64,000 bases of DNA, taken from assembly GCF_001677475.2 (NCBI RefSeq), contig NZ_CP015229.1. One strand, given 5' to 3'. The DNA is from Escherichia coli (GTDB lineage Bacteria > Pseudomonadota > Gammaproteobacteria > Enterobacterales > Enterobacteriaceae). This document shows, piece after piece, positions 3,371-61,224 of the stretch (positions are counted from its first letter, which is position 1; each line of letters begins with the position of its first letter). A program made the translations under genes and the position numbers. The notes beneath the pieces are model-generated. The model was not told the DNA's origin. It saw only the letters and a program-made list of their open reading frames with translations, and did no database searches.

Positions 3371-4348
3371 ATGCTTTTAGCTACGGCACTGTTAATTGTT
3401 GGTTTACTTTTGGTCGTTTACAGTGCCGACCGCCTGGTTTTTGCCGCGTCTATTCTTTGCCGAACCTTTGGCATCCCGCCGCTAATCATCGGCATGACGG
3501 TGGTCAGTATTGGTACATCGTTACCAGAAATCATCGTCTCGCTTGCCGCGTCTCTGCACGAACAACGCGATTTAGCCGTTGGTACAGCCCTCGGCTCAAA
3601 CATTATCAATATATTGCTGATCCTCGGTCTGGCTGCGCTGGTTCGTCCTTTTACCGTCCATTCTGATGTTCTACGCCGTGAATTACCCTTAATGTTGTTG
3701 GTCAGCGTGGTGGCCGGTTCCGTACTCTATGACGGACAACTTAGTCGCAGCGATGGTATCTTTCTCCTCTTTCTGGCTGTGCTATGGCTGCTGTTCATTG
3801 TTAAACTTGCACGTCAGGCTGAACGTCAGGGGACTGACAGCCTGACCAGAGAGCAGCTTGCAGAGCTGCCTCGTGACGGCGGATTGCCCGTCGCGTTTTT
3901 ATGGCTCGGCATTGCGCTTATCATCATGCCAGTGGCCACGCGGATGGTGGTTGATAACGCCACGGTGCTGGCGAATTACTTTGCCATCAGCGAGTTGACG
4001 ATGGGTTTGACGGCAATTGCTATCGGAACCAGCCTGCCGGAACTGGCAACCGCAATAGCGGGGGTTCGCAAAGGTGAAAACGACATTGCTGTCGGAAATA
4101 TCATTGGCGCAAACATTTTTAATATTGTCATCGTGTTGGGTTTACCCGCGCTGATAACGCCAGGAGAGATTGATCCACTGGCGTACAGTCGTGACTACAG
4201 CGTGATGTTGCTGGTGAGCATTATTTTTGCGTTGCTGTGCTGGCGGCGCTCCCCGCAACCGGGCCGTGGTGTAGGGGTATTATTAACTGGCGGATTTATC
4301 GTATGGCTGGCGATGTTGTACTGGTTATCGCCAATACTCGTTGAATAA
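3371..4348 (+). CDS. yrbG: YrbG, CaCA-family putative Na+/Ca2+ antiporter
   Basis: ORF track 3371..4348(+), 325 aa hydrophobic protein with duplicated GTSLPE motifs typical of cation/Ca2+ exchangers. Confidence 0.9.
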   Translation: MLLATALLIVGLLLVVYSADRLVFAASILCRTFGIPPLIIGMTVVSIGTSLPEIIVSLAASLHEQRDLAVGTALGSNIINILLILGLAALVRPFTVHSDVLRRELPLMLLVSVVAGSVLYDGQLSRSDGIFLLFLAVLWLLFIVKLARQAERQGTDSLTREQLAELPRDGGLPVAFLWLGIALIIMPVATRMVVDNATVLANYFAISELTMGLTAIAIGTSLPELATAIAGVRKGENDIAVGNIIGANIFNIVIVLGLPALITPGEIDPLAYSRDYSVMLLVSIIFALLCWRRSPQPGRGVGVLLTGGFIVWLAMLYWLSPILVE

Positions 4349-23894: not shown

Positions 23895-25022
23895 ATGGAA
23901 TCGCTCTCAGAGAGAACCTCAACAGGCTACCAGCAAATCCACGACGGTATTATTCATCTGGTCGATAGCGCACGGACGGAAACGGTACGTAGCGTTAACG
24001 CGCTGATGACCGCGACATACTGGGAAATTGGCCGACGAATTGTCGAATTTGAACAAGGTGGCGAGGCCAGGGCTGCGTATGGTGCGCAGCTAATCAAGCG
24101 ACTATCAAAGGATTTAAGTCTAAGGTATAAGCGTGGGTTCTCTGCAAAAAACTTACGCCAAATGAGGCTTTTTTACCTCTTTTTTCAACATGTTGAAATT
24201 CGCCAGACAGTGTCTGGCGAATTAACACCATTGGGAATTCCGCAGACACCATCTGCAGAATTCCCATCGGCAAAGATTTGGCAGACGCTGTCTGCCAAAT
24301 CTTTCCCCCTGCCCTGGTCCACCTACGTCCGTTTACTTTCCGTTAAAAACGCTGACGCCCGCAGCTTTTATGAAAAAGAGACGCTCCGCTGTGGCTAGTC
24401 TGTTCGCCAGCTAGAACGGCAAATTGCGACCCAATTTTATGAGCGAACACTACTGTCACATGACAAATCAGCCATGCTGCAACAACATGCTCCTGCCGAG
24501 ACGCATATTCTTCCGCAACAGGCGATACGCGATCCTTTTGTGCTTGAATTTCTGGAGTTGAAAGATGAATACTCAGAATCCGATTTTGAGGAGGCGCTGA
24601 TCAACCACCTGATGGATTTCATGCTGGAACTTGGGGATGATTTTGCCTTTGTTGGTCGACAGCGAAGGTTACGCATTGATGACAACTGGTTTCGTGTCGA
24701 TCTGCTGTTTTTCCACCGCCGTTTACGCTGCCTGCTAATCGTCGATCTAAAAGTGGGCAAATTCAGCTATAGCGATGCCGGACAGATGAATATGTATCTC
24801 AACTACGCCAAAGAGCACTGGACGCTACCGGATGAAAATCCGCCCATCGGTCTGGTTCTCTGTGCAGAGAAAGGAGTCGGAGAAGCGCATTATGCACTGG
24901 CTGGTTTGCCTAACACCGTTCTGGCGAGTGAATATAAGATGCAACTACCTGATGAAAAACGACTCGCGGATGAACTCGTTCGAACACAGGCGGTGTTAGA
25001 GGAAGGCTATAGACGCCGTTAA
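23895..25022 (+). pseudogene. yhcG: yhcG (DUF1016 / PD-(D/E)xK nuclease-like family) interrupted by one in-frame TAG codon
   Basis: Track ORFs 23895..24398 (167 aa) and 24474..25022 (182 aa) are in the same frame. The only interruption is TAG at 24396..24398 (sequence tgt ggc TAG tct gtt cgc). Read-through length is about 375 aa, the size I recall for intact K-12 YhcG. Confidence 0.8.
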
Positions 25023-25081
25023 TTTCAGCGGTTTCGAATTCTCCAGACACTGTCTGGAGAATCTTTAAAACGAACTAAATT

Positions 25082-60247: not shown

Positions 60248-61224
60248 CCATTTAGCAAGGATTAATAAGAGAGGGAACTCATTTTGAAATCATTATTCAA
60301 TCGGTTAACGGGAAAAGCGGTTAGCCGGACAGCTTTCGTCGAACATCTTGGTCATGAAGTTGTACAACATCATCCAAACTGGAAAGTCATGATTTCGACA
60401 GACCATACATTGATGCGCATTGAAACTCCACTAAACAGCCATTATTGATACGCCTCCGTCGCCTGTTAGGTTTATGGTGCTTTGCCTGGGCGACGCTACG
60501 CTTAACCTGTTACTGATTTCTGGTACCATGGGGTGAATAATCTGATTTTATTTGCCTACAAATTAACCACTCGAACGTATTTGATGCTGAGCATTGTCAG
60601 ACGGTTGATTTTGCGTGCTTTAGCATTCACATCTATCCAGACGATGAAGTGAAAATTGCGTAATCCTCAGCAACCGCTGCGTAATGTCGTCTATCTTGTC
60701 GCGATCCTGGCATCCCTACATTATTTGTGGTCTGTGAAGATTATCTCATTGCAGCCCCTCATCTTCGCAGGGCTGGCTTTACAGCTTTTAGCCTTACGTT
60801 ATAAGAAGTTCCGTCGATGATGGCGCTAATTTCGTGAGTTGTGCGGCTTGTTGCAAATTACACGGTGTTGAAGGTTATTTACATGTTAGCTGTTGATTAT
60901 CTTCCCTGATAAGACCAGTATTTAGCTGCCAATTGCTACGAAATCGTTATAATGTGCGACCTCGTTCTCCCTGACGCAGTTTTTGCGCTGCGGAAAAGGT
61001 GACATTGGCGCAACGAAGGTATATTTTGTTTTTTGCCGGAGGATAGCAGCAGATCGCTGCACAATGTCCGTCAAGTCTAACATTGACACTCTGGGGCAAA
61101 ATAGACCGGCGTCCCGGCCTGCTGGAATTTATCGCTATGCATACAGCTGTCGGGGCATACGCTTTACAGACGGCGGTGAAACGCCTGTCACAATCACACT
61201 AAACAAAGAGTACGGAACCCACTC

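Follow-up and report, generated by a model that had tools for sequence, protein, structure and literature searches.

We found that yhcG in the analysed stretch of Escherichia coli DNA (64,000 nucleotides, hereafter the window) is an ordinary, recent and lineage-specific nonsense pseudogene, which has probably lost its function and probably represents the nearly neutral loss of a dispensable accessory gene; we give this reading a probability of roughly 0.88. A single recent G>A transition at position 24397 turned the conserved Trp168 codon TGG into the amber codon TAG. Translation should then end after residue 167, leaving an N-terminal fragment without the terminal helix of DUF1016_N and without the nuclease domain. 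The mutation arose inside one E. coli lineage and appears to have become the common allele there, beside an intact sister allele. As yhcG has repeatedly been inactivated in E. coli and related bacteria, we see in this allele most plausibly a nearly neutral gene loss.

The yhcG gene lies between gltD and nanQ, as in other E. coli, and its otherwise full-length frame of 375 codons contains one internal stop, which can be read directly from the window (tgt ggc TAG tct gtt cgc; Table 1). The first-pass annotation had described the split gene in this way, ORF boundaries included, and had given Trp for this codon in K-12. Ortholog comparison, codon by codon or locus by locus, bears out both points: TGG stands at codon 168 in K-12 MG1655, in strain GF4-3 and in the sister strain described below (L035). 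The window allele thus has a stop where its orthologues have a sense codon, as defines a nonsense pseudogene. Leaving the stop aside, it differs from the GF4-3 allele by 10 synonymous and one non-synonymous change. From the K-12 allele it differs in 31 codons, 9 of which are non-synonymous when the stop is not counted. We rejected Dcm deamination as the cause of the G>A change, since the site lies outside any CCWGG context.

Table 1. Features of the yhcG region, with positions counted from the first nucleotide of the window.
Feature	Position	Strand	Remarks
yhcG pseudogene	23895..25022	+	375 codons, one internal amber stop; ATG at 23895, TAA at 25020-25022
Premature TAG, codon 168	24396..24398	+	TGG (Trp) in orthologues; G>A at 24397
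N-terminal ORF, 167 aa	23895..24398	+	DUF1016_N minus its last ~17 residues (WSVRQLERQI helix)
Downstream in-frame ORF, 182 aa, from Met194	24474..25022	+	Complete YhcG_C nuclease domain; no ribosome-binding site
Three tandem in-frame 39-bp units	24183..24300	+	Inside the DUF1016_N coding region; palindromic core AATTC..CAGAC..GTCTG..GAATT
Fourth 39-bp palindromic unit	25023..25062	+	Directly 3' of the yhcG stop codon; repeat family D1, 78% identity

The stop is real and widespread in its lineage. At least six assemblies that were produced independently, in different projects and on different platforms, carry the TAG within flanks that are 99.9-100% identical to the window, and this agreement shows that it is not a sequencing error. 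The loci of SRR24464887 and ERR3309126 match the window with 100% identity; one mismatch was seen in ERR10434813 and three, in 6.5 kb, in GCA_037967675.1. Two further assemblies were found via the lineage-specific NanQ, namely GCA_019141265.1 (100% identity across 5465 bp, with 20 further similar places grouped with it) and GCA_018683435.1 (one mismatch). If those 20 places resemble their representative, the TAG is present on 23 of the 24 read contigs that carry the window's NanQ, and most members of this E. coli lineage seem to have it. The annotation of the GCA_019141265.1 group leaves the interval from nanQ to gltD without a product, which would fit a gene marked there as a pseudogene. When all public assemblies were searched for the exact proteins, the 167-aa product came from 50 contigs and the 182-aa product from 38.

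These findings decide between the two possibilities that had been left side by side in the first-pass annotation, a recent nonsense mutation or a sequencing error: the former, TGG to TAG, stands, and the latter falls. An error in the sequencing or assembly of the source genome could be argued for from the mere single-base difference and from the exact 61-mer around the TAG, which is absent from all 5426 complete RefSeq E. coli genomes (3222 of them match it, none exactly, the best at 98.4% with one mismatch). However, an identical base in six assemblies of various projects and platforms, within nearly identical flanks, and an exact 167-aa product on 50 contigs leave such an error with a negligible probability. 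The exact 42-mer with the TAG likewise had no match among GTDB species-representative genomes. The absence of the 61-mer from complete genomes had first suggested a unique event, which was also the earlier view; the exact-protein look-ups overturned it, and the identical TAG in six assemblies marks the allele as a polymorphic pseudogene, the outcome that the first-pass annotation had named as speaking against a unique event.

The close relatives of the window indicate that the mutation is young. Sister strain ERR14024652 (L035) differs from the window at 2 of 7128 bases (99.97% identity), one of which is the G at 24397 that restores TGG, and the G>A event must thus be recent. All verified TAG loci show zero differences from the window inside yhcG, and by these sequence comparisons the stop is a single recent G>A transition within this lineage. 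The intact sister allele still circulates there. TGG at codon 168 is likewise found in a more distant assembly that shares this NanQ (GCA_018428245.1, 99.2% identity), and the intact protein, identical to the window sequence with Trp168, is on public record as well.

To define what the stop removes, we refer to the Trp-restored protein, in which Pfam places DUF1016_N at residues 19-184 (full model covered, E 1e-41) and the PD-(D/E)XK nuclease domain YhcG_C at residues 208-360 (E 3e-56). In the window, the two domains do not share a single uninterrupted frame, as the TAG intervenes at codon 168. Given the extent of DUF1016_N, the break falls inside the N-terminal domain and not between the domains. 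The YhcG family comprises as many as 24,553 representatives at E<=0.001, and in an alignment of the window protein with 34 homologues that are 34-57% identical (35 sequences in all), Trp168 is conserved in at least 90% of the homologues. E245, D269 and L285 never vary in the same alignment, and K286 is kept in at least 90%; all four residues are intact in the downstream ORF, which contains the entire YhcG_C domain and thus the nuclease core that had been proposed for it. The stop takes away the last DUF1016_N helix (WSVRQLERQI...) together with all that follows, the nuclease domain included. With this helix and the PD-(D/E)XK domain gone, we infer that the truncated gene is most likely a loss-of-function, or null, allele.

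The intact coding capacity of the downstream ORF raises the alternative that yhcG works as a split gene, with a 167-aa N-terminal fragment and a nuclease domain that is re-initiated at Met194, or with a read-through product. The 182-aa ORF carries the whole of YhcG_C with its conserved residues, both ORFs are predicted by gene callers, and the lineage shows no secondary damage. An ORF that keeps all conserved nuclease residues and has accumulated no further damage would fit a fragment that is still used, but a young pseudogene predicts the same, and the youth of the allele makes an undecayed ORF equally expected under both readings. The local signals, in contrast, disfavour re-initiation. No Shine-Dalgarno sequence precedes Met194: the 20 nt upstream pair with the anti-Shine-Dalgarno sequence at +0.7 kcal/mol, poorer than 92% of the ATGs in the window and far from the native yhcG start (-5.0 kcal/mol) and the median of real starts (-5.8). 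There is no in-frame ATG, GTG or TTG in the 75 nt between the stop and Met194, and no promoter-like site for this ORF was found on the + strand within yhcG. The earlier suggestion that a C-terminal fragment could be made from Met194 therefore finds no support.

Read-through fares no better. The base after the stop is T, and the TAGT context terminates efficiently. No tRNA genes, suppressor candidates included, are present within the 64-kb window. The break also removes a conserved helix within DUF1016_N instead of separating two domains. We rejected programmed read-through or recoding, as the stop is not conserved: it is absent from the sister strain, which has TGG, and from all complete genomes examined, with no exact 61-mer among the 3222 that match. 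Other lineages have their stops at different yhcG codons, which bears on the conservation of any recoding site. A functional split gene is thus very improbable, and a nonsense pseudogene remains our preferred reading.

Inactivation of yhcG is by no means confined to the lineage of the window. Of the 5426 complete genomes, no more than 3348 have 80% or more of the gene; some 1100 hold a fragment and 965 have no match, and yhcG is a dispensable accessory gene and not a core gene. Loci with the same 182-aa C-terminal fragment carry other lesions, for instance an IS1 insertion (CP078576.1) and frameshifts, and further such loci have N-terminal fragments of 172, 146 and 109 aa; two of these fragments stem from assemblies in which neighbouring genes are frameshifted as well. 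Truncated N-terminal fragments are also on record under the names of S. dysenteriae, S. flexneri, S. sonnei and S. boydii. In Salmonella Typhimurium DT2, yhcG is listed among the lineage-specific pseudogenes (PMC3760250).

Point mutations have even affected the same codon more than once. Three loci (L003, L005 and L006) have a TGA at codon 168, at position 3502-3504 in each, and encode the identical 167-aa product. Their flanks are 3.3-3.4% different from the window and 1.65-3.5% from each other, and L006 is set apart from the other two by SNPs on both sides of the codon, 36 bp before and 18 bp after it. The divergent backgrounds and local SNPs indicate that codon 168 was hit independently at least twice, probably three times. 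Where loci were read from end to end, stops also occur as TGA and as TAG at W129, as TGA and as TAG at W141 (the resulting 140-aa product is on 95 contigs), and as TAA at Q176; since true stops occur at these codons too, we rejected codon 168 as a mutational hotspot.

Such recurrence fits neutral and favoured loss alike, and selection could have favoured the inactivation of a potentially costly nuclease or defence gene, which would explain the repeated stops and the several hits at one codon. In favour of an adaptive loss are the two or probably three independent stops at codon 168 (TAG, and TGA in SNP-distinct backgrounds), the occurrence of both TAG and TGA at W129 and again at W141, the presence of several stop alleles on tens of contigs and not as singletons, and the apparent majority status of the TAG in its lineage. 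However, our look-ups searched for exact truncated products and were thus aimed at the affected positions. In a control, 10 of 10 other, hypothetical truncation lengths were on record too, although this is weakly informative, as many of these records are partial genes at contig ends. The gene has 122 codons that are one step from a stop, two different G>A transitions can each turn a Trp codon into a stop, and with the whole SRA sampled, repeated neutral hits are to be expected. Intact alleles moreover vary mostly synonymously, which argues that yhcG is maintained in many lineages. We therefore consider adaptive loss unlikely, and tentatively infer an absence of selection at the TAG allele.

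A more specific proposal is that truncation at or near Trp168 is itself recurrently selected: the DNA-binding N-terminal fragment by itself, or a nuclease domain re-initiated at a low level, would have its own activity. Such a product might, for example, act as a form of a defence nuclease that is dominant-negative or altered in its specificity, and the proposal would explain the TAG and TGA stops that arose at one codon in unrelated backgrounds. We regard it as a long shot, and continue to read the allele as a nearly neutral loss.

Besides the stop, the locus contains an array of 39-bp palindromic repeats, three units in frame within yhcG and a fourth directly behind it. A perfect 13+1+13 palindrome lies at 24197-24223 within the gene, and the fourth unit holds a perfect 12+1+12 palindrome (I14, 25038-25062) and forms an inverted repeat (I2) that is 92% complementary to unit 1. 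The core CAGACNNTGTCTG has three sites in the window, compared with 0.01 expected by chance. In O157:H7 ATCC 43894, exactly 78 bp are missing in frame, corresponding to two units (24232-24309), and this deletion probably relates to the yhcG length alleles that serve to type O157:H7 as an LSPA-6 indel marker (PMC3514354). Unit 3 contains deletion and IS1 breakpoints of other strains. At the aligned repeat position, distant homologues carry inserts that vary in length and contain repeated QTxS motifs, and one soil homologue has a palindrome there, GCCAGACAATGTCTGGC. A hairpin, an operator and a slippage substrate are candidate roles of these units, and we dismissed the match of an Rfam miRNA model to the array as spurious (21 bits, against a gathering score of 100). 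The array is a side feature and not the cause of the yhcG disruption, but it is more curious than the stop codon.

Two further observations concern yhcG alleles in other genomes. In many complete genomes, all that is left of the gene is its first ~406 bp, annotated as 'DUF1016 N-terminal domain-containing protein', and the junction of this remnant falls in palindromic unit 3. The sequence beyond it (L018 and L020, locus positions 1501-2302) is unrelated or strongly divergent, and a 101-aa ORF that follows the remnant had no Pfam match. In the K-12 allele (L002, 7828-8955), two family-conserved Trp residues are replaced (W43Q and W141R), of which W43Q, from TGG to CAG, takes two steps and possibly passed through TAG. 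Judged by these substitutions, the yhcG allele of the K-12 laboratory reference may itself be functionally impaired.

The remainder of the window is in good order. Fifty-seven other genes, annotated in O55:H7 USDA5905 or EcN, align over their full length with 95-100% identity, without gaps or internal stops and with a stop codon following. The loss of yhcG is therefore not part of a general genome decay as in Shigella, a possibility that we discarded, and yhcG is the only disrupted gene among those compared in the window, as the first-pass annotation had held. The closest of the 5426 complete RefSeq E. coli genomes reach 98.1-98.6% over 20-24 kb of the window; with none above this level, the lineage is missing from the complete-genome collection, and this distance suggests that the window comes from an E. 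coli lineage that is deep or rare. Best matches along the window alternate between O55:H7/O157:H7 strains and EcN. About 40-50 public contigs share the window's exact NanQ, YhdH and CsrD, lineage-specific proteins that carry the label E. coli at NCBI. In EcN, a truncated yedZ-like pseudogene is annotated between yhdH and accB (L017, 16434-16821), at a place that corresponds to ~60430-60820 in the window.

Kosinski et al. (2005, PMC1189080) predicted that YhcG is a nuclease of the PD-(D/E)XK type whose N-terminal domain is helical and uncharacterised. NCBIfam has no family for it, and a PDB search by sequence gave no relative with a solved structure. With Trp168 restored, the protein matches the PADLOC candidate defence system PDC-S02 nearly from end to end (PDLC04807, E 1.1e-135, residues 8-370), and genes with DUF1016 are enriched beside RM and BREX loci (PMC9881135). 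YhcG may accordingly act in phage defence, as far as such similarities can tell. In the only phage test that we found in the literature, which covered one representative of PDC-S02 (from a cold seep), no protection against T4, T5 and T7 was seen (preprint 10.1101/2024.09.26.614923).

By itself, the TAG allele matters little, as it adds one more natural, probably null allele of yhcG. It also shows once more that yhcG is often lost and belongs to the accessory genes, not to the core. Its practical value may lie in the TAG strains and their TGG sister, which form a natural isogenic pair, only 2 bases apart in 7 kb, and are suited for testing the effect of YhcG/PDC-S02 on phage.

Among known systems, K-12 YhcG (b3220; PF17761 and PF06250) is the direct counterpart of the window gene and shares with it the locus between gltD and nanQ, the 375 codons, both Pfam domains and the conserved nuclease residues. 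The two differ in that only the window gene has a stop at codon 168, and in that the gltF-yhcADEF cluster, which precedes yhcG in K-12, is absent between gltD and yhcG in the window's lineage. Compared with PDC-S02, the window gene is truncated and lies outside any recognisable defence island, with gltBD and the nan operon as neighbours. The 78-bp yhcG deletion of O157:H7 is in frame and the gene is annotated as intact, unlike the gene with the window's stop. The lesions in Salmonella DT2, Shigella and O157:H7 thus affect the same gene and are likewise lineage-specific, but they are events separate from that in the window, comprising deletions, IS insertions and other stops.
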